NCBI GenBank assembly: GCA_001938485.1
Contig: MQRK01237544.1
Span: forward strand, 1-50,979
DNA: 50,979 nt
Source of the DNA: Girardia tigrina
Lineage: Eukaryota
Reading direction: 5' to 3'
This document shows, piece after piece, positions 6,021-50,075 of this stretch (position 1 is its first letter; each line of letters opens with the position of its first letter). The position numbers and the translations under genes are program-made. Below the pieces are notes generated by a model. The model had not been told where the DNA came from. It worked only from the letters and a program-made list of their open reading frames with translations, and made no database searches.

Positions 6021-7085
6021 TGGATTGTTGTAGTGACAATTTAAATTGTGATAATAATAAATGTAAAGGAAACTCAATTAATGTTCTTAATATGGCGACC
6101 AACGACTACGTGACTCCGAACATTAGAAGTGCAGAAATATTTGACGGATCTGAGTCAAAAGTTAAGGACTTTTTAAAGAGCTTCGGCAGATATACGAAGA
6201 TCATGGGATTCTCAGAAGAAAGAAGAGTATTGCTGGTGACAGCATTCATGACTCCGGAAGCAATAAACAAATACGAAAATGCACAGGGAGATACATGGGA
6301 AACAAAAATGAGATCTGCATTCACCAGAGAAAAGAACATTCTGGAGATAATGAGGGAACTTGTTGAAATAAAAGTTGAATCAAACGACCCCTCAACCGTA
6401 TTCCGGAAAATAGACGACCTAGTTGGAAAACTAGTAGAAAAGAAATTAGGAAAAAAAGAGATATCAGACTTAGCATATGCTAACGCCGTAGATGATAGAG
6501 AAGTAAAGAAAGAAATAGCTTTGAGAGGTATCTCGAAAGCTGAGGATATCGAATGTATACAGAAGAAAATATACGAATTCGAATCAAAGAGTAAAGATAT
6601 AAGGGTGGACGCGTACACTACAAAAAAAGACAACGAATGGAAAACGGTCGAACATAAGAGACGAAAGCCAAGACCACAAAACGAAGAAAGAATAATAGAA
6701 GAAAGAAAGAGATATTTCAAAAAGAGAAACATTTATTTTTGGGCATGCCACGAAGAAGGTCACGTGAGAAGAGAATGCCCAAATATCAGGTGCAACCACT
6801 GTAATAAAAAGGGGCACGTAAGAACACAATGCTATGAAAATCCAAATAGATTCAGAGAACGGGAGCAATGGAAACGGGACAACGAATGACTGGAAGAGAT
6901 GACAGGAGAAATTACTCGAATGTGAAATATGGAGAGCGAAGTCCAAAGACAAATAGAAAATATTCATTGGCTGAATTAGAAGAACGAAATGAGGAATGGG
7001 ACAGAATGTCGGAAAGAACAGATAGAAGAGAAGATGTTACAAGAAGAGATTACTTCACGAATAATAGGAAATTCAGAGACGAGCA

Positions 7086-7129
7086 GGGAAACGAGGATGC
7101 ACGATCACAGGGAGAAGTGATCAGTGTGC
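7086..7129 (+). promoter_or_regulatory. -1 ribosomal frameshift signal (G GGA AAC plus stem-loop) at the gag/pol junction
   Basis: The slippery heptamer is in the gag frame, followed by hairpin gcacgatcac/gtgatcagtgtgc. The -1 frame joins the protease ORF 7278 with one intervening stop. The same signal is conserved in the copy at ~49297-49342 (-). Confidence 0.7.
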
Positions 7130-8957
7130 TACAATAGGAAGTAAATGTAGATGTATGATTGATTGTATGTATGAATATGTATGTGATTGTATGTTTGATG
7201 ATGTGTTTTAAAATATTCTTCTGGAGAAATGTATACTAAATGGTGAACATGATGGAAATGATGGAAAATGTGATAATATGAAAACCGAAAAAGAGAAGAA
7301 AAGAAAAAAGAATGCAGATGTATTGAGAATACCAATGTTTAACATAAATTATAAAGAATTGAAAGGACGACCAAGTACAGAGTTTCGCATAAAGAATAAA
7401 AGTGTACAGTGTCTGTTGGACACAGTGGCCCGAATCAATGTTATTAAAGCAGAGATTATCAAAGATAAGAAAGATATCAAAATGAAAGAAACAAAAAGAC
7501 GAGTAAACTGTGCAAATGACTCGGAACTTATAAAATATGGAATTGTGCAACTAAAAGTGATAATTGAAAGGTTTGTGAAAACGATTGATTTTTTTGTAGT
7601 TAAAGATCTAGATCCAGAAATGATAGCAGGAATAGATTTTTTTGGACAAATTTGGAATAAAGTTGAAGAAAGAACCATCTCACACAGAAAATGTATTAGT
7701 AATACGAGACAGCCCCTCTGATGAGGATAGACTAAAAAGAATTAAAGAGCTGTACGAAAAAAATTGACGACCAATTAATGAGACTTAACAGAATATAAAT
7801 CAATATTTATGGTCGACAAATGGAATAATGGAATAACCTTACTGACAAAACATAAAATCGAAACGCATGGAGAACCGGTATTAGTGACACAGTATCGACA
7901 GCCGAAACATTTCGAAGAAAAAATAGACGATATCATCAGAAATTATGAAGAAAACGATATTATCGAAAAGTGCAGTTCCCCGTGGAATTTTCACCTGGTA
8001 TATGTTTGGAAAAAGGAGAAACTAGACATAAGAGTGTGCGTAAATTTTCGACAATTAAACAAAATCACTGTCAGATCTGCTTTTCCAATGCCAAATGTAG
8101 AAGAGATGCTGAACACACTAAATGGAGCAAAGTACTTTAGCACGATCGTCTTAGGAAGCGCATACCACCAAGTAGAGCTGGAAGATGAATCAAAAATCAA
8201 AACAGCATTTTCAACAAAGAATGGTCAATACTGTTTCAAGAGAATGCCATTCGGAATTGCGGCGGCACCAGCAACGTTCCAAAAACTAATCGTAAAAGTT
8301 TTGGGCGAATTGAACTGGAAAGAGGCAGTTGTATATTTGGACGATATTTTAATTTTTGCGAAAGATAAAAAGGAACACCTCAAACGAATTGAACATGTAT
8401 TTAGTAAAATAAAGGAATCTGGTCTAAGAATAAACCCTGAGAAATGCCACTTCTTGGTTTAAAGGACAAAGTTTTTAAGATACGTGATCAGCAAAGATGG
8501 CATAGAAACAGATAAGACAAAGATCGATGCGATTAGAAAGTTTCAGAACCCCTCATATGTTAAGCACTTAAGAAGTTTTTTTAGGTTTAACAAACTATTA
8601 CAGAAAATTTCTTAAAGACTAAAATATTCAAAATATTCAAAAGTATTGGAAGGGCTGTGTGGAAAGAATAAAGATAAAAAAATAATATGGATGGAAGAGT
8701 GTAACGAGGCATTTCAGAAATTAAAGGCAAAATGATCAAAACACCAATATTAACATATCCAGATTTTGAAAATGAGTTCATATTGGATACAGACGCCAGC
8801 TTTGATACCATTGGAGCAGTGCTATCACAGAAATATATATATGGAAGAAAAAGAGTGATTGCATATGGATCCCACAAAATGAATAAGCATAAATTGGAAT
8901 ACTGTATTACGAGAAAGGAACTGCTGGCAATCTGCTATTTTACGCAACACTTTAAAC

Positions 8958-9370
8958 CAGGGGTGTGCAACCTTTTTCATTGGCGGGCCACTTTTTAAAA
9001 CTGGAACAACAGCGAGGGCCAGTCACCGTCAAAAATATGTAATCTAATTACGGATTATTACGACTAGTGTATTGAGATATGAATACATTTCTAAACAATA
9101 AAGACAAATAAAATTACCTTTAGTTTTATTAATGTGAGACTTGGCATTGTGTGGCATAATTCAAACGACGCCCTATTGCGCGAGTTAAAAGAGAAGTATG
9201 GTAACAGAGAAGTTTAACTAAGAATTTTTTCCTGGGACGAAAAGCTCTGATCACGAATTAAGAGGCACTCGGCGTCAATTCATTTAACTTTCTGGACGGT
9301 TAGCGCGGGCCACACTGACTGGCTTGGCGGGCCGGATTGTGGCCCGCGGGCCGCGGGTTGCACACCCCTG
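8958..9370. mobile_element. Non-autonomous hAT (Buster/Charlie-like) element inserted in the Gypsy RNase H
   Basis: Perfect TIRs CAGGGGTGTGCAACC / GGTTGCACACCCCTG. 8-bp TSD CTTTAAAC (8950-8957 and 9371-9378) with central TA. GGCCCGCGGGCC subterminal motif. The host frame QHFK|HYLYGK resumes after the insertion. Confidence 0.95.
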
Positions 9371-11319
9371 CTTTAAACACTATCTTTACGGCAAAAAAAT
9401 TTTATTAAGAACAGATTACAAAGCCATCACATTTATGTTGACGACAAAGAACCCAATCACTCCGTAATTTCAAACTTGGATAAATTTTCTTAGTGGGTTG
9501 GATATGAAAATGGAATACCGGAAAGGCGAAAAACACTCTAACTCCGATGCAATGTCGAGGAATTCCTGCGAAATGTGTGTACAAGGTCAGACGATACACG
9601 AAGAAGCTAAGAAAGGAAAAATTAAAACAAGAATCTTAGCCCTTGACGATGAATCAAAAGAAGTCAGGTGGCAGAAAGATAATGATGAGATAAACCAAAT
9701 TAGAGAAGATATTAGAACTGGGAAACCAAAGAAATGGGTATTGAAAGATGATAATCGTGACGACAATGGATAATAAATACTGGATCCCGAAAATCAAAAG
9801 AACTGAATTTGTGGAAGATATACACAAGATGCTATGTCATGCTGGTAGCAAGAAAGTTTACAATTATTTAAAAGATGACTTTGATATGAATAATATGAGA
9901 GAAATGATAAAGGAAATCGTACAAAGCTGTGTAAATTATCAGAAGAGAAAGACCCTAACAACGAAAACAAAAGAGAAGCACATGAAACAATTTGCAGATG
10001 AACCCTTCCAAAAACTATACATGGATTTCTGTGGACCGTTTAAAAGAAATATTAATGGATATCAATACATACTAGCGATAATCGATCAATTTAGCAGATA
10101 CATAAGATTAAATGCCGTTGCCCATCAAGACGAGAAAACCGTAAGAAAAGTACTATTAGACAAATGGATTTGGAAATTCGGACCTCCAAAAGAAATCCAT
10201 GTCGACAGAGGAAAGACATTCGAATCAGCACTTTTTAAAGACACAATGAATAAGTTTAAAGCTGAAATAGTATATTCCAGCCACTACCACCACAATACCA
10301 ATGGGATCGTAGAGCGACAATTTAGAACAATTAGAGATGCCATAAATATACGAATGAAGGATGAAACTCACAAAGACTGGACGGAAATTTTGCCAGAGGT
10401 AGAATTTATGTTAAATAGCACAATTCAAGCTACTATAGGCGTCTAACCAGCGGAAATAATATTTGGCAGGAAGTTAAGACATTGGTGGAAAAACATCAAG
10501 GAAGAAAGGGCCAGGAAAGAAAAGAGCAAAAATGTAGTAGAGACAAATCGAACTTTTCAAGTTGGTGACAAGGTATTGATAAAGAGAGAAAACATAGCAA
10601 AAGAAGAAGATCGATATATAGGTCCGGCAACAATAAAGAACCGTATATACGCAAGTTTTACGGAGAATTGTTGTAGTGACAATTCAAATTGTGATAATAA
10701 TAAATGTAAAGAAAACTCAATTAATGTCCTTAATACTAACAATTTCACAAATATTACTACACGATATTTCTTTTTGAACTTCCTCAATCGATTCTTGTTC
10801 TTCATTTGACATGTTGCTGACTATTACTGTTCTTTCACTTTAAACCAATGTTTCTCTTTTTATTGCAATATATTTAATTATTTCTAAACCAAGTTTCTCC
10901 TCTGTTAAAGGTCGTTCCAGAAACATATGAAATTGTTTTTGTTCTACATTTTGATTTTTAATTTTCTCATATTCTATTTATATTCTCTATTTATTTATTC
11001 TATTTATTTATTCTATTTCTCTATTCTATTTTTACTCTATTTATATTCTCATATTCTATATTCATTTACTTTGAACGCTATTTTCTCTTGTTTCAACATT
11101 TTAATTTAGCTTTCTTTTTCTTCCAAACTTTTTCCTATTTGTTTGATTATTTCTTCTCTATTCACCAAAAGTATTTTCGTTTCCTCGAACTCTTCGCATA
11201 TTTTGACACAATCTTCAATGGACGATTCTAATTCATTTGTTAGAATGCCGATTTCTTTTTCTAAAATTTTCTTATCCGATCTCATTTCCAGTATATCATT
11301 ATCGAATTTTGTTGGTACT

Positions 11320-22772: not shown

Positions 22773-23371
22773 TTCAATATATATATATATATATATTTCG
22801 ACAAACTTAATAAATGATTTGTTAATTTTTTTGTATTAGTCTGTAAATAAATACTTGATTAAAGATTTACACACTTGAAAAAATTGTATTAACGCAGTTA
22901 TTTATATTATTATGTATTAAGAGATGAAATAAAAATGTATGATGCAACTTTAATGATTACGTTGTGGCACTATAATGAGAGATTCTTCCTATTTGTAACA
23001 AGAAATTCACCGGTGTAAGGCAAACAGTGAAGGAATGGCTTTCTATTAATTTAAAAATTTAGATATCGATTGGGACCAGACCAAATACCGGCGGATGTCG
23101 AAGGTAGCGTTATAACGAGAGTAGACTGTATTACAATATTTTTGTTATCGCTAAATGTTTGAGAATTGTTGCTCAGCATAATTTCATGCTGTCATTGGTT
23201 GAATTATTATTGAATGTAACAATAACGAGACAATTCAATTCTTTCTAAAAACCGTTAAGTTTTTATTTATCATATTATTCAATGCTTGTAAAACACTCGC
23301 GCGATTCGGAAGAAGTAAAAACTTTTAAAATCTTTTTAAATACCTTCAAATGACTTTTATCCTAAAATCTA

Positions 23372-26300
23372 TGTGGTACCGAATGCCGAACCGAGTGGCG
23401 ACAACCAGCACCTCTTAATTGTGCGGGAAATTGTCGCTGGCGGACATGATCGGTCGGTTCCAGTGTCCAACAGTCGATACACGGGAGCGCGTCGGCGCCG
23501 CAAACGGCCCACAGCGGCTCGCCAAAGTGTGTTGGTCCTGTCGGCGGCGTCGCATCGGTCGGTGGTCCACTCGATGCGTCCAAGTGGGTTGTCCGGATAC
23601 CGATTCGCTGAGCAATGCGGTGGTAGCTCTGGTCCGCTCGATTTCATTCGTTTACAATTTAAAAAATTTAAAAAGTAAGAAATCAGAAGAATTTATTTTC
23701 ATCGACATTTTTACCACATTGGAATTTTCCATGTTTAATAATTTTAATTTAATTTATTTAAACAAGTCAGTTTTTTTTGTTTGCTATCGATTATCGGATC
23801 ACTACAGGAGCCCCCGCCGAAGAATGCAGAACATGGTTATTGTGGAATTGTGGAGGGTTGCTGGAAGTCTGAGAGGTGCAAGAATGAATATTCCTCGAAA
23901 CGCGATGTGTTGCAGTGTTGTTTTGTTTATGTTGGGTTTTGTTCGTGTGTCTGTTTGCGTGTGATGTGTTGTATTGTTGGGGTATGATGGCATTGTTGCT
24001 GTGTCGGTGATGGTTTTGTTTGGCGTGTTGTTTGTCTCGGTGTGATGTATTGTGTTGTGGATGTGGTTCTGGCGGTATTGGTATGGGAACGTGATGAACT
24101 GCTGTAGATTTTGTTTCTTAAATGTTGTGTGGTTCTTTTCTGGGTTTATTTGCTTGTTACTGCTGTGTGACTGATTTTTAGGATCCTCTGTGTACTCAGT
24201 GATGTTACTTTTGACAGTGCTGGTATTTGGGATTGAATTCTCGCTGTAGTTGGTCTGCTACACATTGTCACATGGTTTGTTATTGTTGATTTGTTCGGTG
24301 TGGTTGTGATTATCTATGTGGTTGCTCATGTTGTCATCTTGAGTGTCGTAATTGTTGGTGTTGTTGTTTTGTTCGATGTGGTTGTGATTGTCGGTGTGGT
24401 TGCTTATGGTGTCATCTTGATTGTCGTAACTGCTGGTGCTATTGTTGTTTTGTTCGGTGTTGTTATTATTGGTGTGGTGTATATTGGAGTCATGTGTGTA
24501 CTGAGTGTTGTTGTTGTACGTGTCGAGATTGTGGCGGTAGCTAATGTAGTTACTTTGTGTACGTGGTTCGTAAATATGGTGAATGTCGTTGCTGTAGATG
24601 TTTATAGTGTGACGATTGTCATTGTTGTTGTTTTATGTGTGTGGTTTGTATATGTGGTGAATGTCGTTGTTGTTGCAGGTGTTTAGAGTGTGGTAATTGT
24701 CATGGTTGTGGTTATATGTGTTTAGTTTGTGAATGTGGTGAACGTTGTTGTTGCTCTGTATGTGTGTGGGGTCGTAGCGGCTTCTTCCACCTGCCTCACT
24801 TGCTGCGATTGTGAGGGGTGGTTTCAGTTTTTTTGCTAATAGTGTACACACCCGGGAGCGCACTCCTTGCTATCCGTGTTGAACTGGGCATGCCATATAC
24901 ATACGCCAGTCATTTGTGGTTCAGACCCATCGCACGGGAACGTGCACCCGGGTTTGTATTTCTTAGCTCCTTTGCGGAATCGACGGTGAAAGTAGCACAA
25001 GACGATATTGACCTCCTTGAATGAGCCGGATAGCGGGGTTGGCGTCCTTCCAGGACATCGGGCGATTGGCATCCGTGCCGTATGGCTCCGCGATCTCCGG
25101 CTCACTGCATTGCTGAGAGACTGTTTCAATAGGTGAGTAATCACGGTTGTGGCTGATAGCGGTCAGACTGGCTTGCAGAGCCGCTATCTGTTCGAAAAAT
25201 GTTGTTACCTCCGTGAAGTGTGCGTGTTGCGGTGTTCTAGAGCTTGGTGTGCGGCTGCTGTCGCTGATTGCCGAGATGATCGGGTAGCAGTGGCCCTTGT
25301 CGTGCCCAACGGTTTCGGTGATTTTGTCCACAATCTTGGCAAGCTCCATGCAGAGCTCCATGAGCTCATGCAGATCGGTTGTCAACTTGTTCAGGAATTG
25401 AGTGGGTTTCATGTATCCCATTGCTGAGTCCTGAAATATTGCTCGAAATGCGCATCGAAAGTCTGCGAGTGTGCCTTCATTAAGTGGTGGCACAACTGAT
25501 CGTATGATCGGTCATGTGTCATGATCACCGGCAGTTCTTTGTTTATTGCCCGCAGTTGATCGATCGGTAATGCGGCTGTGAGGTGTTGAAACAATACATG
25601 TTGACTCCTCACGGTATTCAGACGGAACTCCATTAGTCCATGTCAGGTTCGAGGTGATCCGTCGTCACCTAGAAAAAACGGGGACGTCGGTAGCGCCAAC
25701 GAGTGCACTGCGATTGACTCCTGCACTTGTGGTATGCCGATTTCAGAGAAAATTTCGGGTCCCTCATCGCGATTACCATCGCCTAAAAGTGCCACGTGGC
25801 AAGTGATTGTCGTGTCGGTCACGGTCCCGTACTACTATGAAAGAGAGATGAGAGCGCAACGGTTTAAACCCATGATAGTGTGACTGGATGTCCCGACTGG
25901 CTGGTGAGGTGATTTATGAGGTGTTCGATTAAACAGTCGGTGGACAATTGGAGTGTGGTGACAATGTCCCCTTCAGTGTTTATTGTTATTGTGGTGTGTG
26001 CTAAAGTTATTGTTTTCAGTGTGATTTCGATGTGGTGTGTGCTTATTTGATCGTTAAGTGCTGTGTGAGAGTAAAGTTGTTTAATGTAAGGCATGTGAGT
26101 GTTTGTTGTGGTGCATGCGTGGTGATTGTAGTGTGTATATGTGTTGCAGCAACCGTGTTTCAAAAAACATTCAAAATCGTTTACCTGTGTTGGAACGGTT
26201 GATCCCACTTCTAACACCAATGTGGTACCGACTGCCGAACTGAGTGGCGGCAACCAGCACCTCTTAATTGTGCGGGAAATTGTCGCTGGCGGACATGATC

Positions 26301-26654
26301 GATCGGTTCCAGTGTCCAACAGTCGATACGCGGGAGCGCGTCGGCGCCGCAAACGGCCCACAGCGGCTCGCCAAAGTGTGTTGGTCCTGTCGGCGGCGTC
26401 GCATCGGTCGGTGGTCCACTCGATGCGTCCAAGTGGGTTGTCCGGATACCGATTCGCTGAACAATGCGGTGGTAGCTCTGGTCCGCTTGATTTCATTCAA
26501 TTGCAATTTGAAAAATTTAAAAAGTAAGAAATCGGAAGAATTTATTTTCATCGACATTTTTACCACATTTGAATTTCCATGTTTAATAATTTTAATTTAA
26601 TTTATTTAAACAAGTCAGTTTTTCTTGTTTGCTATCGATTATCGGATCACTAAA
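23372..26654 (-). mobile_element. Non-autonomous Gypsy-type LTR element (gag remnant only, no pol)
   Basis: Near-identical LTRs at 23372-23806 and 26221-26654. TSD ATCTA on both sides. PBS TGGTGTTAGAAGTGGGAT (tRNA-Leu type) at ~26202-26219. Purine-rich GGCGGGGG next to the other LTR. Gag-like FQHLTAALP..YDQL..L at 24963-25633. Long GT/CA-rich filler. Confidence 0.92.
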
Positions 26655-31975: not shown

Positions 31976-32011
31976 CAATCATTGTTCTGTAGCGTAATTA
32001 ACTTAATATAA

Positions 32012-35000
32012 TGTTGGATATTTGATATTTTAATTATTTGAAATATTTAATATTTACTTTTTTGATAAATATTTTGTTTAAATATTATCAATTAAACAGT
32101 GTTGTGAAAATAAACTTTTCGCGTGTTACAAGCTATCCGGGCATAATGAATGATATGAAAATCGTTTTAGAGTTTTTAGAGAAATTCGATGGAAGCATCA
32201 GTTTCGAGATTTGGTAGAAGAAATTTGAAATGATCATGAAAATCTAGAAGATTACTGATCCAGCCCCGTATCTCCCTTTTTTACTATCGGGTGTTGCACT
32301 GAACATCTACATCGAATCGGTCGAGAAGACGCAAAGCAGCTGCGATCGGTTCCTCAAGATATTAAACAATTCGTTCGGCCTGACTAGACGTTCTGCATAC
32401 AGTCAATTGATAAACTTACAGTATCACGATGGTGAGACTATCGATGAATATGCATCTCAGGTGAAGATGTTAGCAACGAAGGTCGACGATCTAACAAAGG
32501 CTGCATTCATGGCTGGACTGCCTTTCGAGTTGCAGGTGGATTTTGAACGGACCGGCGACCAACCCCTGACCGAAATGATCGAGTATAGCCGCAGGTATTT
32601 GGGGAGTAAAAAGGGTTTATTACAGGGTTCAATGGCAGCAATACAACACGGAAACAACATCAAAGAAACAAGGAGTTCCGGAAGTCAGGGCGAACTCGAT
32701 AAACCCAGAGCAAATCTTCAGAAAGAACCCTATGTTCATCGTGAGAGAGACACTTAATTGAAGGAAAGTAATCATCATAAGGGTTCTCAGTGGCAATTAA
32801 ACAGACAAACAATATGCTACAAATGTCAGAAACCGGGTCATATCGCAAAATATTGTCGGTCGGGAAACGAGCAGGGGAGTTTGTAGGCGCCGGCTCTCTC
32901 CCTTCACAGTTAACGGCGTTGCCGACAGGTCAGCCATATCGTTGATTGATTCGGGTTGTTCGAAAACGGTTATTTTAAAAGGGTTAGTTAGTGATTGTAT
33001 GTTGTTTTCTGACGGAGAAAGTATGGTTTTGGCGAATGGAATAGGTGTTAGAGTGGGTTCGGTTGAAGTACGGTTGAATATAAATGGCAGGATCATTAGG
33101 GTGGAATGTTCGGTCATGGAACATTTGCCGTATGGTTTAGGGATCTTAATAGGTATGTATGTCATAAGTAAATTGGGTGGAGTGAAAATTAATAAGGGTG
33201 TTATTGAGTTCGGTGAAGAGGAAATTAAAGGGATAGATAGTAGCTTGAGTTGTACTGCATCGGATGCGCCTCTTGTTAGTATAAAAAAACATAATTTTGA
33301 AATTGAGTTTAGGGAAAATTGGCCGATTAAATGGAATTGGAAAAGTGAGGCTCCGAGTTATCTTCCGAATCGTCAATCAGTTTTTAAGGACAAAAAATTA
33401 AAAGATGTTGCAACGTTGAAAAATTTAGACGGTTGGGTAGAAAAGGGTTATCTAATCGAGTACAATGAGGAAGAAATGGGTAAATCGATAGGATCCATAC
33501 CGATATTTGGAATATTACAGGCTAATAAGTCCAAGATAAGACCCATTTTTTATTTTAGAAAATTAAACAATTACGTGGACGTTTATAGTGGTTCTGTGGA
33601 CATATGTTTAGAAAAGCTACACGATTGGCGACGTAGGGGTTCGACTTTTTTAATGCTTGATTTGTCAGAGGCGTCCATGCAGATTCATGTTCATAAGGAC
33701 ATGTGGCGTTACCAATCTTGTATCATTAATAACAAGAAATATGCTTTAACTAGAATGGGTTTTGGTTTAAACATTGCACTAACTATAATGACCGAAATCG
33801 TCAGGTGGATTCTGAACTCTGACGCCAGGATGCGTGAAAATACAGACTCTTATATTGATGATATTTATGTAAATGAAAGTTTCATTTCCGTTGAAGAAGT
33901 AGAAAAAGGGTTCAATAACTTCGGTCTCAAATGTAAGAAACCAGAAAATCTGTCACAAGCCAACGAAATTCGAGTTTTAGGCATGAAGGACCAACATGTT
34001 GTGAGATGGAAAAGGGGCAATCATGTAAGAGAAGAGTCGGATGTGGAATCAATTTCACGTCGTGAGTTATATTCGTTATGTGAACAATTAGTAGGAATAC
34101 ATCCGGTAGCTAGTTGGCTACGTCCGTCATGTTCATATCTTAAACGACTTAGTGAGGGAAGGTGGGAAGAAAAGATAGACGAGGAATTATTCGAGAAGAT
34201 GAAATGGGTTTTAAAGACAGTGAGGGAGAGTGATCCTTGCAGAGGTTTATGGGCTATTGATGACTGCAGGGAAGGTATTATATGGTGCGACGCAAGTTCG
34301 ATAGCCATTGGTGCTGTGTTAGAAGTCAAAGGGAACATAATCGAGGACGCATCATGGTTGAGAAAAACTGATGATATTAATGTAGCAGATATAACTGATA
34401 TTAATGTAGCAGAACTAGAAGCAGTTGTAAAGGGTTTAAACTTATGTGTGAAATGGGGTTTAAGGAGCGTGATAGTAAAATCGGATAATAAGTCAGTAGT
34501 TTCGTGGGTAACCACAACAATCTCAGATCGCGAAAAATTAAATACCAAAGCTTCATCTGAGCTTTTAATAAAACGAAGACTGTCGATGATCAAGGAACTG
34601 TGTCAGGAGTATGAGATCGAGTTGAAGATCGAGTTTGTTAATAGCGAAGTTAACAAGGCAGATGAGTTGACAAGAATCCCAAAACAATTTAAAAGAAGCA
34701 ATTGTTTTTTATCGGTTACGGATGATCTACTCAAGCTGCAGCAACTTCATGATAAGTGTCATTTAGGCGCAAACAGAATGCGATATTTATGTGCAAAGCA
34801 AGGAATAGATGTGTCAAACGCGGATATCAAGGATCTGATTTCAAGATGACAAGAATGTCAATCCATCGATCCGGTACCCGTAAAATGGAAAACCGGGAGG
34901 CTGAGCGTCAACGAAAACTGGACAAGACTTGCTGCGGATGTTACAAAGTACAATCAACTAAAATTTTTAAGTGTAATCGATTGTGGTCCTTCTCGCTTTG

Positions 35001-35850
35001 CGATATGGAAATTAATTAAGACATCAAGTCAATTGTCTCAGAATTCTCAAGTTTGTTCTGTGAACGCGGGTCTCCCAAGGAACTAATTATCGATAATTAT
35101 ACCACATTTCATTCAGTAGAATTCAACAAACTAATGGAAAAATGGAACGTTCGAGTCATGTATCGTGCCATCAATCGACCCAACTGCAACGGAATAATAG
35201 AAAGGAATCATAGAACAATCAAAAGAATTGCGTCNNNNNNNNNNNNNNNNNNNNNNNNNNNNNNNNNNNNNNNNNNNNNNNNNNNNNNNNNNNNNNNNNN
35301 NNNNNNNNNNNNNNNNNNNNNNNNNNNNNNNNNNNNNNNNNNNNNNNNNNNNNNNNNNNNNNNNNNNNNNNNNNNNNAGATTATGTTGAGAATCAATTAG
35401 TGTGGGTAAAACCGGAAAACAGTACACCATGTACACAGCAATGGACCAAGGGTGTTGTCGTGAAAAGAATAGATCAAAGAAAATATCTAGTAAATTACAA
35501 CGGATTTTGTGGTCCAAGACATATCGCAGATATTCGACCTAGACAGCCTGACTTGGTTGAAAATTCCAAGTCATACTATATGAATATGGAGGAAACTGCA
35601 TCACTACCAGACAATCAAACACAAGAGGAACAATCATTGAACTGTAGGCCTAGTAGAGAAAGACGAAAACCGCCTTATCTAAATGATTACATTGTGGATT
35701 CAGATTCTTCTGTGGACGAATTTGGTGGGAGTGTTGGATATTAGATATTTTAATTATTTGAAATATTTAATATTTACTTTTTTGATAAATATTTTGTTTA
35801 AATATTATCAATTAAACAGTGTTGTGAAAATAAACTTTTCGCGTGTTACA
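32012..35850 (+). mobile_element. Structurally complete 3.8-kb LTR retrotransposon (gag, PR-RT-RH-INT) with 119-bp LTRs
   Basis: LTRs 32012-32130 and 35732-35850 (TG...CA, 1 mismatch). TSD TATAA. Gag from ATG 32146 with CYKCQKPGHIAKYC. Protease LIDSGC, RT YIDD, RH WCDAS...INVAELEAV, integrase H..CH..C and PNCNGIIER. Several stops and frameshifts. Confidence 0.95.
32131..32142 (+). promoter_or_regulatory. Non-canonical primer-binding site complementary to nt 1-12 of tRNA-Lys(UUU)
   Basis: AGCTATCCGGGC lies immediately after the 5' LTR. Its reverse complement GCCCGGATAGCT is the conserved 5' end of metazoan tRNA-Lys(UUU). Confidence 0.75.
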
Positions 35851-37799: not shown

Positions 37800-39038
37800 A
37801 TTACGAAAGTATTCATTTTCGTCTTGTTACGAGTCTTACAATTATTTAAGTATTATAATTATAGGCAGTCTAATCACTAAATACTGACAAATCTGCATGC
37901 TCACGACCATCAAATTATTATTTCGAAGAAACGTTACGACTTTAACTATTGAATGGCAAATCACCATGAAAAAAATAAAAGGACTGGTATCATCCTGGTA
38001 CCTAGAAGGGCTTCCCCTGACGAAAGGAAATTGTATATTTGTCCTTTAGTCATTGAGGTTGACACTCTACACATTCTCTTCTCTATGAGTCATTATATCA
38101 TCTGTCTAATTAGAGTAAAATCACGAATGCCAATCTTTTAAAACGCAAATACTCATACAGAAAAACCGCGGACACGACAACACATGATCACATATATTAG
38201 ACTCTGATATGTCGGGCAAAAAAGAGTCGAGGTAGTTTCTTTGGTGGGAAGAGAATAAGCGCTTTTCTGATATGATCATCGCAGTACTCATGACGATTTG
38301 AGAACATATGTACAAAAAATCGAAAATATACTCGTCAAAAGCGCCAATGTAAAGGGGTAGTGTTATGGTCTGGGTGATGGTTCTGCATAACGGACTTCTT
38401 TCATACAAAATCATAGAAGGAAAATTCGGATCTAAAGATTATAAGCAATATTAATACATAATGCTATTCCTATCATAAAACTTAAGTGTGGTGATAATTT
38501 CTACTTCCAGGAAGACAATAGTCCGGTTCATAAAAGCTAACTTATAAAGGACTTTATGAAAGAAAGTGAAATTTCTGTACTAAATTGGCCTGCGAAAAGT
38601 CCAAATTTAAATATTACTGAGTACATGTGGAAGAAAATATCCGACATTGTTTCAATGGCGCTCAGTATAAAAATAAGGCAGAATTATGCTTATCCATCAA
38701 AAATGCCATACACTTGATTAACTATCTAGAAGACATATTGTTATCGAATTGTATATGTCAATAAGAAGTCGACTGTGCAAGATATTAAAAGTGAATGGAA
38801 ATCTGTACAACAGTTTAATGTCCTAGAATAAATGTTACTGTTTTAAAAAAATTTCGTTTTTAACTATGCATGAAATTTAATTTTTCAATAAATTTTTTGC
38901 ACAAATGCAAATTAGTGAAATTTTTTTTACTCTTTCTAAACTTTAAAATTTAAATAACACATAAAAATTTTAATATTTGTACATATCATTACGATATAAA
39001 CTAAAGTGTAAGTGTGTTAAAAAATTTATCGCTCAGTA
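37800..39038 (+). mobile_element. Degenerate Tc1-like (DD34E) transposon
   Basis: RFSD, GGSVMVW, FYFQEDNSPVHKS and LNWPAKSPNLNITEYMW motifs. Right end ...ATCGCTCAGT lies next to (TA)n. Left TIR not found. Confidence 0.8.
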
Positions 39039-39049
39039 ATATATATATA

Positions 39050-40140
39050 TTAAGAAGGAATCATGGAAAAATAAAGATAAACATAAATACAGGTAAAAAA
39101 ACCTTGTGATTATAGATGGTATAATAAAGACGAACAAAGGAAAAATTTGGATACCGGAATCAAATAGAGAAGAAATGATGATGCAGATACACGCGTTACT
39201 GTCTCACGCTGGTAAGGTAAAAGTGACAAAATATATTGCAGAAAAGTATGATATGACTAACCGAAATGAAATGATAAAGGAGGTAATAGGACCATGTGAA
39301 GCATTTCAAAAAAAGCAAAACAGTAACGACGGTCACGAAAGAAAAACGAATAACATTTGTCGCAAAGGAACTATTTGATAAATTATATATCGATATTTGT
39401 GGACCACTAAAAGAGACACAGAGAAAGAAAAATTACATCGTCGTAATCATCGATCAATTCAGTAGATATATTTCATTAAAAGTGGTTAAGACGAAACAAC
39501 AATACAGAATACAATTATGACAAAATGGATTTTACGATTTGGTGCTCAGAAAGAGATTCATACAGATTGTGGTAAAACTTTCGAATCGAAGGTAATAAAA
39601 GACATGGCTAAAAGTGTGAGCATTAAAATGTGTTACTCAAGTCCGTACCATCATAACTCGAATGGAATAGTAGAAAGACAATTTCGGACGATAATAGAAT
39701 ATTTAAACGCATTGTTACATACAAAGAAAGGATCAGACTGGGAGGAACTACTACCGGAAATAGAATTCACATTAAACGCAACTTTTCGGACAACAATATG
39801 GAAGAGACCAGCGGAAATTATATTCGGTAAGAAAATATATAGAGAAGGATGGCATAGTCAAGATACAAAGGTACAGCGAGAGAAAGAAAAAGAAGAAACA
39901 ACATCCAGAAGAAATTTCGAAATTGGAGAGGAATTACTAGTCAAAGCGGAAACGGGGATAAAGAGTAAAGATACCATATAAAGAGTAAAGGACTGTATAA
40001 AGTAATAGAGAAAACACATGACAGAAGGTATAAAATAATAAATGACGATGGAAGAATTTTAGATCGCAACGGGGAAAAATTGAGAAAATTCTTAAAGAAG
40101 TAGGGATATTAGGGATTAATTTAAATTTGCATTTCTCCAA
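39050..40140 (+). mobile_element. Gypsy integrase fragment with PPT and LTR stub
   Basis: IHALLSHAG, LYIDICGPL, IIDQFSRY, HTDCGKTFES, SSPYHHNSNGIVER. Ends KFLKEVG followed by a purine tract. Confidence 0.88.
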
Positions 40141-40194
40141 AAAAATTTTGGTGTTAAATTATGAGTATTGATTTCTAGTGATGGAGTGGGGGAG

Positions 40195-42277
40195 CTGGTA
40201 TTTCTGGGACATACAATTAACAAAGAAGGTATCTCAACAAATAAATTGAAAGTGGCAGAAATTCAAAATTTTCCGATTCCGAAGTGTACTCGAAATTTAC
40301 GAGCATTTTTGGGTCTGTGTAACTACTATGGACGATTTATCAAGAATTACGCAGAATTAGCAGCACCGTTGCACATTGCATGCAGCGGAAAATGTAAAGA
40401 AATATTTTGGTCAGACGAGTGCGACAGAAGTTTTAACGAATTGAAGCAAAAGTTATGTGGTGCACCAATATTAGCATTTGTGAACCCGAATAATAATTTC
40501 CTCTTAGACACAGATGCATCATTCGGATCGATAGGAGCAGTTCTTAGTCAGATATCAGAAGAGAAAGAAGTAGTAATCGCGTATGCATCGAGGACTTTAA
40601 CCACACATGAAAAAGGGTACTGTGTGACAAGAAAGGAACTATTAGCTTTACAAGAGTTCATGTTACATTTCAAGCAATATTTATATGGCAAGCGATTTAC
40701 AGCAAGAACTGATCGTAAAGCACTGGTGTATATGAAGAGTACTTCCAAACCAATAAATCCTCAATTCCAGATATGGTTAGCAAACATGGTTGATTTTGAC
40801 TTTGATTTGAAGTATAGAAAAGGTGACGAACATGAAAATGCAGATGGATTATCACGGCTATACGACGACGTTTGTGCACAGTGTGAAACAAAACACGAAG
40901 AACCAAAATCAACAAAAGCAAGGGTGAAGCACATCAATACAGTGGTGATTCAGTATACAATTCAATGGATAAAAGACGAACAAGAAAAGTGCTCAGAGTT
41001 GAACCAGTTGAAACAAATACAGGAGATAGCAGAGGGTGAAAAGAATGAAATCACCAAGGAGTTATTACAACTGAAGGACCAATTAGTTTATCAGAATGGG
41101 TTATGGGGTAGGCAAGAAGGAAATTGTGTGTTACCATTGGTTCCGAAGCAAATTAGAAGAGATTTCATCAGGAACATACACAGAGATTTATGTCATGTAG
41201 GTATCAAAAAGACAAAGAAGTACATCCAAAATCATTTTATACTACCAGATTTAGCGAAAGAGGTGCAAATTGTTATAGGAGAATGTCAGGAATGTATACG
41301 CAGAAAAATTCCAAGTGAAGAAACAAAAGAGAAGTTGATTCCAATAAGAAGTGACGAGTTTTTAGAGCAAGTCGTGATGGATATCGCATATGTAGGTGAC
41401 AAGAATAGCAAGTACCCATATTTATTGGTCATGGTGGACCAGTTTTCGAAATTGGTCTCTTTGACAGAGATTAGAACTCAAAACGAAGACACTATAGTTC
41501 AATGCGTATAGATATGGGAAGCCAAAAACAATATTAATAGACAATGGAAAATATTTTACCGGCGGAAAATTTAAAGATTTTTGCAGGAAATATGGAATCG
41601 AACAAAGATTTAGTAGCCCATTTCAACATCAATCAAACGGGTTGGCAGAAAGAACTATTCGAACAGTGAGAGACATGATAGTAACAAGCAGAGGAGATAC
41701 AGACAAACGATCATGGTGGCAAATTGTTCTGAAGATAGAATTCTGTCTAAATGCAACAGTTCAGAGTACGACCGGATATTCGCCTTTCGAAGTTGTGTTT
41801 GGTAGAAAAATAAACTTACATGCTACAGCAGGAATAGCTAAAACAGAAGAGAGCAACGTGATTAAGATGAAGGTAAGAGAAAATTAAGAGAAAGCGGCAA
41901 GACGAATGGAAAATTGGGAGAGAGAGACGAGAACAAATCGACATTTCGAGGATGGTCAGAAAGTCTTTGTAAAACAAGATTCTACAAAACTGAGAAAGGA
42001 TACCTTCCCATTCGATGGACCGTACCAAATTTTAATCGTCACACCAATTGGAACTACAGAATTTGAAAGATGGAAAAATAATTCGTCGAAGAATTGAGTG
42101 GATTAAGAAAGTGAAAAACGAATTATAAAAGAGGGAAAGTTGTGATTATTATCTGTTTAAGTATTCTAAAAAGATTGTAAATAATTAATAAATTCTACTT
42201 GTTGTTATAATGAATAATGAAGTGAAACCTGGAGATTTAACTATGAAAGTGGCATAAACACTACTTACATTCTAACA
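40195..42277 (+). mobile_element. Gypsy RT-thumb/RNase H/integrase fragment plus probable 3' LTR (~42141-42277)
   Basis: FLGH, LRAFLGLCNYY, LDTDAS..GAVL, NADGLSR, H..CH..C..C, VDQFSK, QSNGLAER and FDGPYQI. PPT AAAAGAGGGAAAG, then TGTGA...CTAACA. Confidence 0.9.
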
Positions 42278-47060: not shown

Positions 47061-47079
47061 AAATGTCACAGCATCTTGT

Positions 47080-50075
47080 GAGCGCCTTCCATGAATTATG
47101 TCCTTGTGGTTCGCGTAATCCAATATTTGTTATATATTATTGTCACAAAATTGTCTTTCAGCATCCGTTTATTTGTTCTTCCCATTCTTATATATTCTCT
47201 TATCTGATTTATTTCGTCATTATCTTTCTGCCATTTGAACTCTTTTGATTCTTTGTCTAAAGCCAAGATTCGTGTTTTAATCTTTTTTTTCTTAGCTTCT
47301 TCGTGCATTGACTACATAATTCATAAGAATTTCTCTGCTTTTTCCCACCTTTTCGATATTCCATTCTCATATCCAGACTACTAAGAAAATTTATCCACGT
47401 TTGAAATGGCAGTGTTATTGGGTTTTCGTATTCAGCATAAAGGTAATAGCTTTACGATCAGTTCTTAGTAAAAATCTTTTGCCGTATAAGCGTTTAAAAT
47501 TTTGCGTAAAATAATAAATTGCTAGCAGCTCTTTCCTCGTAACACAATATCTAAGCTCGTGTTTGTTCATTTTATATGATTCATACGCGATCACTCTCTC
47601 TCTGCCATACGTGTCCTTCTGTAATAATACTGCCCCGATTGTATCGAAGCTTGCATCCGTATCCAGCATAAACTCCTTCTCAAAATCTTTATACGCTAGT
47701 ATCGGGGTGTCAATCATTTTTTCTTTCAATTTTCGAAAAGCTTTCTCGAATTCTGCAGTCCATATTATCTTGTTGTCTTTATTCTTACCACACAAACTCT
47801 CTAATACTTTTTGATTATTTTGCGTAATCTTTTAAAAATTTTCTGTAGTAATTTGTCAGATCCAAGAAACTTTTCAAATGTTTAATACATGATGGGTTCT
47901 TAAATTTTTTAATGGCCTCAATCTTTGTTTGATCAGTTTCTATACAATTTTTACTGTCAATATATCCTAAAAATTTGTTCTTTCTTTTAAAAATTGGCAC
48001 TTTTCAAAATTATTTCTTAAACCTGCTTCCTTAATTATTTCCAGTACATGTTTTATTCATTGCATATGCTCTTCCTAATTTTGTTTCAAAAATCAAAATA
48101 TCGTCCAAATATACTAATGCCTCTTTCCAATTCAAGTCTCCTAGAATTTTGACCATTAGCTCTTGGAAAGTTGCTGGGACTGCTGCTGTCCCGAAAGGCA
48201 TTCTTTTGAAACAATACTGACCGTTCTTTGTTGAGAATGCTGTTTTAATCTTTAATTTTTCTTCTAACTCGACTTGGTAGTACGCGTTTCCAAGATCGAT
48301 TTTACTAAATACGCACACCATTCAGTGTGTTCAGCATATCATCTACATTCGGTATAGGAAATGCTGGTCTGATGGTAATTCTATTTAACTGGCGGAAGTC
48401 TACACACATTCGAATATCTTGATTTTTTTATAGAGTTAAGAGTAGGTTGCGGTATCCCGTATATTAATAGAAAATTAATGGGGATCTACACTTTTCGATT
48501 ATGTCATTTTCTTCGAAATTTTTAATAACATCATCCAATTTTTCCTTAAAGTGTCTTGGTTGCCGATAAGGCTGTACTAGTATTGGATCCATATGTGCTT
48601 CTATTCTGTGTTTTGTCAATGATGTTTTCCAGATATCCCACTTATCGGCTATGAATACTGATTTAGAATCTGTTAGAGTCTTCAGTTATTGCTCGTCAAT
48701 TTTCTTGTTAAATATTTACATTATTCTTTTTAATCTGTCCTCATCTGATGGGTTGTCTCTAATCACAAATATTTCCCAACCTCGAGGTATCTGTCTTTTC
48801 AGTTTTATTCCGAATTTATCAAAGAAATCTATACCTGCAAACATTTCGGGGTCTAGTTCTTTGACCAGATAAAACTCTATTAACTGGCTGTGTTCCCTCA
48901 ATAATCACCTTCAATTGAACGATTCTATAATTGATCAGTTCTGAATCATTTGCGCAATGAATAAGTTTTTTCGTTTCTCTAATTTTAATATCTGTCATAT
49001 TTTTAATTATATTTACTCTGGCTCCGGTGTACAAAAGGAAATGAACTTTTCTTTCTTTCACGAAAAAATCCACACTTGGATCTCTCTTCAATTCTTTATA
49101 ATTTATTCTTAAACTTTGATACCTTCAATATTTTCGTTTTACCATTTAGTTTCTTATCATATTGAGTTTTCATACTTTTACACTGTTCTCGATTTCCAAA
49201 TTGTTCAAGTTCAAGTTCACAAATCTCTCGAGGAATATTTTCATACGTAAAATCAAACATACAATGAAACATACATTTACATTGATTTTCTAATGAAGCA
49301 CACTGATCACCTCTCCATGTGATCGTGCGACCTCGTTTCCCTGTTCGTCTCCGAATCTTCTTTTACATTTAAGATAATCTCTTGTTGCAAACTCTTCTTT
49401 CCTATCAGACATTTCCGAACTCCTGTCCATTTCATTATCCTTGTATTTTAACTCCGCTAAATGTTGTTTCTTATTCATATATCCCGGTCGTTCATTATAT
49501 CTTTAATTAGAATAATCTCTCCTCTTATTCCAACGATTACTATTATTGTCCCATTTCCGCTGGTCACGTTCTTTAAACCTATTTGAGTTTTCATAACATT
49601 GTGTTTGCAGATTTCCTCTTCTTTGACAATGGTTATACTGAACGTTTGGACATTCTCTTCGAACATAACCTTTCTCATGACATGTGCAACAAATAATTTT
49701 TTAATTTTAAAATTTCGACTTTTACCTTCTCTCTTTACTTTTTCGTTCCGTGGTTTTGCTGTTCTTCTTTTATTCTCTACAGTTTTCCAATCGTTTTCTT
49801 TCCTTGTATTATATATTGCTATCGGTGAATTTCTTTTCTTTTTACCGTATTTATACATCCTCATTAGTATGTTTTTAATCTTCTCTGCCTTTATTATACC
49901 TCGAATCGCTATCTCTTGATCAACGTTATCATCATCAATCATATTAGCATAGACCAAGTTTGATAGTTCTTTCTTAACAAACTTTTTCTCCACTAGTCTT
50001 TCGATTATCTCATCTGCTTTGCGAAACGTAATAGACGGATTACCGCAACCTACTCTTAACTCTATAATATTGTTG
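47080..50075 (-). mobile_element. Decayed Gypsy gag-pol, same family as 6024-10735
   Basis: Collinear homology: EQGNEVARSHGEVISVL, KTAFSTKNGQYCFKRMPFG, YLDD, LDTDASFDTIGAVL and KIKTRILALDKESKE. Confidence 0.92.

Follow-up and report, generated by a model that had tools for sequence, protein, structure and literature searches.

Known primers of minus-strand DNA synthesis in LTR elements are the 3' end of a tRNA, a tRNA half and the element's own 5' end; copia and Ty5 use an initiator tRNA-Met that is cut in the anticodon region. For Tf1, the accessible part of PMC7175516 describes an 11-nt primer which RNase H releases by cutting an RNA duplex. The ICTV profile of the Metaviridae gives an 18-nt primer site that is complementary to the tRNA 3' end (PMC7879559). 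Here we describe a 3.8 kb LTR element from Girardia tigrina (32012..35850 of the window, the whole stretch of 50,979 nt that was analysed) in which the 12 nt adjoining the 5' LTR are complementary to the 5' end of a host tRNA. This is almost certainly a binding site for tRNA 5' ends.

The Girardia element and its putative primer site

The features of the window copy are listed in Table 1. The first-pass annotation had set the LTR boundaries by the second LTR and the TATAA duplication, and both stand. The coding regions of this copy are damaged. There are in-frame stops in gag at 32215, 32245 and 32755, and the integrase is broken by a stop at 34847 and a frame change, with an assembly gap at 35235-35377. 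The inverted repeat next to the polypurine tract is kept throughout the clade while its arm sequences change; it contains one G-T pair in the window copy and is perfect in another copy (L212). Contigs from four RNA runs, one of them a recorded metatranscriptome, cover the element with mixed identity; as such contigs cannot reveal starts, strand or small RNAs, they were left out of the evidence. An ESM Atlas search with one of the relatives (P0004) led to unnamed DUF7047 clusters and generic RT clusters.

Table 1. Features of the LTR element in the window (positions are those of the window).
Feature	Position	Strand	Remarks
Left TSD, TATAA, 5 bp	32007..32011	+	matching copy on the other flank
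5' LTR, 119 bp, TG...CA	32012..32130	+	paired with 3' LTR
Putative primer binding site, AGCTATCCGGGC	32131..32142	+	exact complement of host tRNA-Lys(UUU) nt 1-12; spacer to LTR = 0
gag	32146..32886	+	starts 3 nt past the primer site; Retrotrans_gag E 3e-4, below cut-off
CCHC zinc knuckle in gag, single	near 32815-32856	+
GGGAAAC, where a -1 frameshift from gag into pol likely takes place	32862..32868	+	motif and frame overlap
pol open frame, 682 aa stop to stop	32801..34849	+	protease, RT, DUF7047, RNase H, integrase start
Protease	about 32927-33169	+	inside pol frame
DUF7047	34055-34225	+	RT core on one side, RNase H on the other
RNase H	34253-34687	+	inside pol frame
Integrase region	34745..35744	+	3' of RNase H; rve E 0.02, weak
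Inverted repeat, 7-bp arms	35701..35724	+	directly 5' of polypurine tract
Short polypurine tract, GTGGGAG	35725..35731	+	adjoins 3' LTR
3' LTR, 119 bp	35732..35850	+	1/119 mismatch to 5' LTR
Right TSD, TATAA	35851..35855	+	matches left copy

In the host assembly (1.43 Gb), tRNA-Lys(TTT) genes begin with GCCCGGATAGCTCAG (four pattern matches; four genes called by ARAGORN). The site of the window copy pairs with the 5' strand of this tRNA exactly, also at a G-U wobble position, where a site copied in sense from the 3' acceptor strand would read differently. Pairing ends on one side at tRNA nt 1, the -1 base of the gene being an A that is unpaired with the element, and on the other side at nt 12, where the terminal A of the LTR cannot pair with C13. 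The host genes thus bear out what had been claimed from the window alone, namely a site complementary to nt 1-12 of tRNA-Lys(UUU), without spacer and without TGG, which ends exactly at tRNA nt 1 and at the LTR edge. The 5' end of the host tRNA-Lys is as the first-pass annotation had stated it.

No second match to AGCTATCCGGGC was found in the window on either strand at up to two mismatches. A two-mismatch match somewhere in the window is produced by 43 of 100 shuffles, so that a single 12-mer match is unremarkable on its own; it is the position of the site and its covariation across families that exceed chance. In 11 elements of the window family, there is no complement of at least 8 nt to the tRNA 3' end. 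A bipartite site, involving the tRNA 3' end or the tRNA arms, was considered and rejected: only matches of 8-10 nt were found, a chance number for 3.8 kb, and none to nt 69-76.

Occurrence of the site in the host genome and in related families

The 12-mer is kept among sister copies. At the 30 best-scoring 5' junctions of the window family, a set that was picked by similarity to a site-containing query and leans to intact sites, the site is exact in 22 cases, has one or two substitutions in 7 and contains an N in one, while TGG occurs in none. Matching 5-bp duplications were found for 7 of the 10 copies with two LTR hits. The same primer site is present in a second host family, which has a different LTR and a pol that is 38% identical. 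A degenerate search for the site in the host genome gave 2,414 matches as compared to 55 for the control. The first 100 of these matches listed comprise 87 of the Lys(TTT) type, the others being single-change variants; none of these 100 is of the Lys(CTT) type, though the host has tRNA-Lys(CTT). Met-type sites were searched in the host genome and none was found, though the host has tRNA-Met.

A second class of sites, AGCTATCGCGGC after ACA, has 824 exact matches in the host genome (control: 0) and precedes LTR ends and gag starts of many kinds. The host tRNA-Phe whose 5' end it complements was put together from two overlapping fragments, one 5' and one 3' (with GAA anticodon and matching acceptor strand), no whole gene having been called. 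Of 20 stretches of this class that were fetched, 9 have a clade pol downstream, and in 5 a second LTR ends within one base of the site edge. The corresponding Drosophila-type site, AGCTATTTCGGC, is the end of an antisense probe, published in the accessible part of PMC7038984, that targets Drosophila tRNA-Phe at its 5' end. It occurs twice in the host genome, as opposed to the 824 sites of the host's own Phe type, and is used by 13 foreign families. The putative primer site thus tracks the host.

To extend the analysis beyond Girardia, a profile was built from 23 relatives and 78 metagenome loci were fetched. Junctions were first placed by inspection and with a pattern biased towards AG[CT][CT], which resulted in 60 loci from 43 families (80% protein identity). 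As a less biased check, gag starts were placed with a gag profile (38 of the 43 families). The gag start is covered in 58 loci, and 57 of these have a 12-nt site at the corresponding position; the 58th (L063) is cut at the contig start, yet keeps the last 8 nt of the site. A junction had previously been placed in 56 of the 58 loci, and one locus with a Met-type site (L083) was added. In the 43 families, information at site positions 1-12 is 1.05-2.0 bits, with the exception of position 8 (0.12 bits), at which tRNA acceptor stems differ. Conservation drops sharply past position 12, and positions 13-24 fall to 0.05-0.57 bits. The first ATG follows at a median of 4 nt downstream of the site. The LTR edge is fixed by a second LTR in four of the loci (L034, L049, L052 and L064).

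An exact match to a tRNA 5' end that we have seen exists for 28 of the 44 families. Fifteen of them match one of six host 12-mers (12 Phe, one Lys-TTT, one Lys-CTT and one Tyr variant), and a further 13 match the Drosophila Phe end. The other 16 families are an exact match to none of the eukaryotic tRNA 5' ends seen. Nine families, both Met-type families included, are one mismatch away from a host tRNA, and the remainder differ by two to four; the 12-mer of L094, for example, has four mismatches to the nearest tRNA 5' end. A literature look-up of six 12-mers (extended by CA) that were not matched to a tRNA returned one irrelevant match. In IMG/VR, some tRNA-Phe genes start with GCCTAGATAGCT or GCCGAGGTAGCT, and Thr/Ile genes with GCCGGGATAGCT; this is based on 51 tRNA calls in 80 of 121 loci which are not the hosts' tRNAs, and these sequences are thus tRNA-like only.

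While the register remains unchanged, the site switches between tRNA-Phe, Lys(UUU), Lys(CUU), Tyr and Met, the last at one mismatch. The Lys(CTT) match is found in L056. In L093, AGCTATCATCGG matches a 5' variant of host tRNA-Tyr that starts with C; this variant occurs in truncated Tyr copies, whole Tyr calls being one base different. In L083 and L102 (CGCTACCGAGGC), site position 1 is changed as nt 12 of tRNA-Met changes, with one mismatch to host Met. The Tyr and Met cases weigh most, because both ends of the site change as those tRNAs differ (nt 1-3 and nt 12) and the register is kept. In a quick tree of all 44 families and the window, in which the window row is on a long branch, switches fall inside supported branches (L093 with L087, SH-aLRT 98). 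Covariation with tRNA 5' ends across families, which the first-pass annotation had named as a check, is therefore strongly positive, and its interpretation of the site is supported by these sequence comparisons.

Named relatives are from Hydra, Watersipora, Chionoecetes, Trichuris, Sycon, Nymphon and Amphibalanus, a host range of sponge, Hydra, whipworm, bryozoan and arthropods. A profile of the RNase H retrieved 1,038 protein clusters at E 1e-10 or better; a search for relatives in viral contigs found none. The putative 5'-end primer site is widespread across an animal LTR-element clade.

RNase H and the origin of the primer

The predicted RNase H domain retains the four acidic catalytic residues. 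Pfam RVT_3 is matched in all 34 members, while the gypsy-type RT_RNaseH is matched in only 4 of 34, with E 0.006 at best. The pol model is confident (pLDDT 85.7). When compared to known structures, its RNase H scored highest with Halobacterium RNase HI (Z 17.5, rmsd 2.2, 123 aligned), followed by the enzymes of S. tokodaii (Z 15.7, rmsd 3.2, 126 aligned) and LC11 (Z 14.9), and then by those of E. coli, human and HIV (Z 11.6-12.6). The predicted fold thus appears closest to archaeal RNase HI among the isolated chains scored, which do not include Ty3 RNase H, and the ranking may reflect only a shared short fold. According to the accessible part of PMC4408406, archaeal-type RNase H is marked by an Arg that replaces the active-site His; at what appears to be the corresponding position, with the alignment judged by eye, we found a near-invariant Ser. 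For the S. tokodaii enzyme, cleavage of dsRNA is described in the accessible part of PMC9719913. Sequence searches with the RNase H against the PDB returned nothing significant (best E 0.12-0.8), and a single-sequence model of the isolated domain was unusable (pLDDT 37). The RT model ties between CaMV (Z 21.2), MMLV (Z 20.9) and Ty3 (Z 20.8), and reaches Z 7.3-7.7 with retron RT. In sequence, RT matches are weak, the best being to foamy virus (E 1.5e-8).

A minus strand has to begin at the LTR edge. As nt 12 of the tRNA pairs there, it should be the growing end of the primer, and by geometry the hydroxyl at nt 12 alone points into the LTR. The element site, directly after the 5' LTR, is complementary to nt 1-12 of the host tRNA and tracks tRNA identity and host. 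We propose that, inside the particle, the element RNA would invade the mature tRNA at its acceptor and D stems. The RNase H of the element would then, in analogy to Tf1, cut between nt 12 and 13, at the edge of the RNA-RNA duplex that faces the LTR, and so free a 12-nt primer that ends in a 3'-OH. Extension of this primer by the RT from the terminal A of the LTR would produce a DNA end that is flush at CA. Plus-strand synthesis would proceed to the primer's 5' end and run off there, which would account for a site that ends precisely at tRNA nt 1. In a crude model, which ignores modifications, invasion of the tRNA is favourable, with a net -8.9 kcal/mol for Lys-TTT; the values are more favourable for a 3' site of 12 nt (-13.1) and for a site of 18 nt (-28.5).

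On balance, we lean towards priming of the minus strand from tRNA nt 12 after an RNase H cut made by the element between nt 12 and 13. The element-made cut is preferred because the catalytic acids are kept, RVT_3 is matched, the model is archaeal-like, S. tokodaii RNase HI cleaves dsRNA, and Tf1 provides a precedent. More tentatively, the elements may form an unnamed, animal-wide lineage, at roughly the same distance from gypsy elements, retroviruses and caulimoviruses, with a new way of starting reverse transcription in which the archaeal-like RNase H would act as an RNA-guided tRNA endonuclease that cuts a 12-nt primer off the 5' end of the host tRNA specified by the primer site.

The primer might already be cut by the host, as a 5'-tRF (a half, or a fragment of about 14-18 nt) whose nt 1-12 anneal and which is 3'-trimmed to the duplex edge by a nuclease of host or element, so that the element would not have to cut an intact tRNA. 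Such an origin fits every sequence result equally well, the free fragment makes unfolding of the tRNA unnecessary, and 5'-tRFs of tRNA-Lys(TTT) have been probed as expressed RNAs in zebrafish (accessible part of PMC4688932). However, an exact 12-nt register that holds for five or more tRNA types in many hosts would be easier to obtain from an element-encoded ruler, and the RNase H of the element is unusual; we consider a host-made primer rather unlikely. If the tRNA stayed whole, the RT might prime from the 2'-OH of nt 12. Retrons prime in this way, giving branched RNA-DNA, and such a branch would have to be resolved later. The geometry would be the same, with nt 12 as the last paired base facing the LTR, and position 12 tolerates U or G. 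We know, however, of no LTR-type RT that uses a 2'-OH, and the RT model is near caulimovirus, retrovirus and Ty3 (Z about 20-21) and far from retron RT, which makes 2'-OH priming improbable.

The primer 3' end would be elsewhere than at nt 12 if the site only tethered the tRNA, be it for packaging, dimerisation, translation from the gag start or 5'-tRF silencing, or if a freed CCA end did the priming. The closeness of the first ATG would agree with this, as would the fact that pairing to nt 1-7 frees the 3' strand of the tRNA. We nevertheless regard these functions as quite improbable in view of the missing complement to the tRNA 3' end in the window family and of a site that adjoins the LTR without spacer, where the minus strand must start, with no other primer site seen. 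That the element primes itself in cis, or is primed by the 3' end of an unrelated host RNA so that the tRNA match is incidental, has next to no probability. A short site adjoining the LTR is also found in Tf1, but the best self-complement of the site is only 7-8/12 in the window copy and in ten copies with two LTR hits (several with N gaps), and upstream of the site it is 6-9/12 in the 42 families with upstream sequence. A U5-leader stem as in Tf1 is absent from these families (mean z 0.1, 1/42 below -2; 40 nt on each side, site held open). With no complement in LTR or body and no such stem, self-priming is largely refuted, in agreement with the first-pass annotation, which had found it unsupported. 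As the site switches among several tRNA 5' ends, it is improbable that another host RNA primes with its 3' end, and the exact matches to five tRNA 5' ends, together with the tracking of the host's own Phe end, rule out an incidental match.

Significance and comparison with known systems

The priming mode, which the first-pass annotation did not know to be described, is apparently undescribed: a search of the open literature, with subscription papers and Repbase outside its scope, returned tRNA probes and general reviews and no description of a 5'-end tRNA primer site. Families of the clade may be catalogued in Repbase, and the site is perhaps noted there. The accessible parts of PMC7472051, PMC7773854 and PMC3601003 do not mention a 5'-end site, and primer sites are not discussed in those of the papers on the gypsy clades MolGy, PolGy and Tor (PMC6238403, PMC8556966, PMC4402516). 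None of six marker motifs occurs in the readable supplements of two papers. Use of the tRNA 5' end by a large clade would add a priming mode that links the tRNA-primed and self-primed modes. It predicts either an element-encoded tRNA cut at a site set by base pairing or the direct use of 5'-tRFs as primers, and further that elements of the clade would escape control by 3'-tRFs and be open to 5'-tRFs. Annotation tools that seek TGG would miss the primer site of thousands of copies (more than 3,000 site matches in the host genome) and of about a thousand protein clusters.

With the Metaviridae (Ty3/gypsy), the element shares TG...CA LTRs, a CCHC gag, the pol order PR-RT-RH-IN and a polypurine tract (PMC7879559). 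It differs in having a putative primer site of 12 nt that is complementary to the tRNA 5' end and not to its 3' end, and an RNase H that matches RVT_3 and rarely the gypsy-type RT_RNaseH. RVT_3 is common to the RNase H of the element, to the aRNH of plant Tat elements and to archaeal-type RNase HI, which provides the best matches of the RNase H model among the isolated chains scored (Halobacterium, Sulfolobus tokodaii, LC11). The characteristic Arg of the archaeal type is, however, not evident here, and in Tat elements the aRNH is a second RNase H, while it is the only one in this element.

Hemiviruses of the Ty1/copia group (copia, Ty5) also use a shortened tRNA as primer (PMC8515867), which for our element is suggested by the site. 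In contrast to an internal segment of initiator tRNA-Met, the sites described here are complementary to nt 1-12 of elongator tRNAs (Phe, Lys, Tyr, Met), and the integrase, which precedes the RT in hemiviruses, follows the RNase H. The element is thus no hemivirus, nor is it a member of the Tf1/sushi self-priming group. With Tf1 and Tf2 of Schizosaccharomyces pombe, the common trait is a short primer made of the 5'-terminal nucleotides of an RNA and placed beside the LTR (11 nt for Tf1 in the accessible part of its description, 12 here). Tf1 takes this primer in cis from its own transcript, with a supporting RNA structure, whereas the site here complements a host tRNA that would act in trans. 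The proposed priming would thus likely represent the cut-to-prime mechanism of Tf1, applied in trans to a tRNA.

Inverted repeat before the polypurine tract

An inverted repeat of 5-7 bp is found immediately 5′ of the polypurine tract in 25 of the 29 elements examined, a few of which are close relatives, compared to a mean of 1.2 and a maximum of 5 in the shuffle control. The arms vary between elements while their complementarity is kept. As only 2 nt separate the arms in many elements, the repeat may act as a palindrome, for dimerisation or as a protein site, rather than as a hairpin.

Other repeats and host tRNA genes

The window also carries a decayed, 5′-truncated member of a second family from the same clade, with a pol about 38% identical to that of the main element. 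Sister copies of this second family have an LTR unlike that of the main family and the same Lys-type site, the 12 nt that abut the 5′ LTR. In 11 of 13 sister copies, the LTR end TACA is followed by this site, which mostly shows substitutions. Three further repeats have integrase-like matches and probably represent a different LTR family; one of them carries 69-bp direct repeats separated by 4.6 kb.

Near the anticodon arm, host genes for tRNA-Phe and tRNA-Tyr are often interrupted or cut short. The pieces of split genes lie about 1-2 kb from each other, and those of tRNA-Phe overlap by 16 nt. The pattern looks as though a tRNA-targeting mobile element inserts at this place. The tRNA-Lys(TTT) genes at L032 are tandemly arrayed, and the repeat unit measures about 520-550 bp.

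Features of the window and of fetched loci
Feature	Position	Strand
Inverted repeat before polypurine tract	window 35701-35724; relatives L034, L035, L039, L043, L044, L047, L056, L068, L079, L092, L093, others	
Second-family member	window 44647-about 47060	+
Repeat with integrase-like matches	window 6024-10735	+
Repeat with integrase-like matches	window about 38000-42000	+
Repeat with integrase-like matches	window 47063-50026	-
Direct repeat pair (443 bp, 96% identical, 2.85 kb apart) flanking a tandemly repetitive core	window 23362-26652	
Split/truncated host tRNA-Phe/tRNA-Tyr genes	L178 and L181 (contig C181207), L183; L151, L154, L159, L164, L169	
Host tRNA-Lys(TTT) array	L032 (G000:C249670)	

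Choice of tRNA

Two 12-mers, at L094:3233-3244 (situated at a contig end) and in L055/L065, have the complements GAAAGAATAGCT and CGCGTGATAGCT, which match none of the tRNAs seen; the D-stem half is kept. All cognate host tRNAs that the clade uses (L032, L153, L162, L178, L210) have A at position 9, and the site position pairing with it is invariant. Where a tRNA has G9 instead, this base often carries an N1-methyl group that would prevent pairing, and avoidance of this modification may account for which tRNAs the clade uses.
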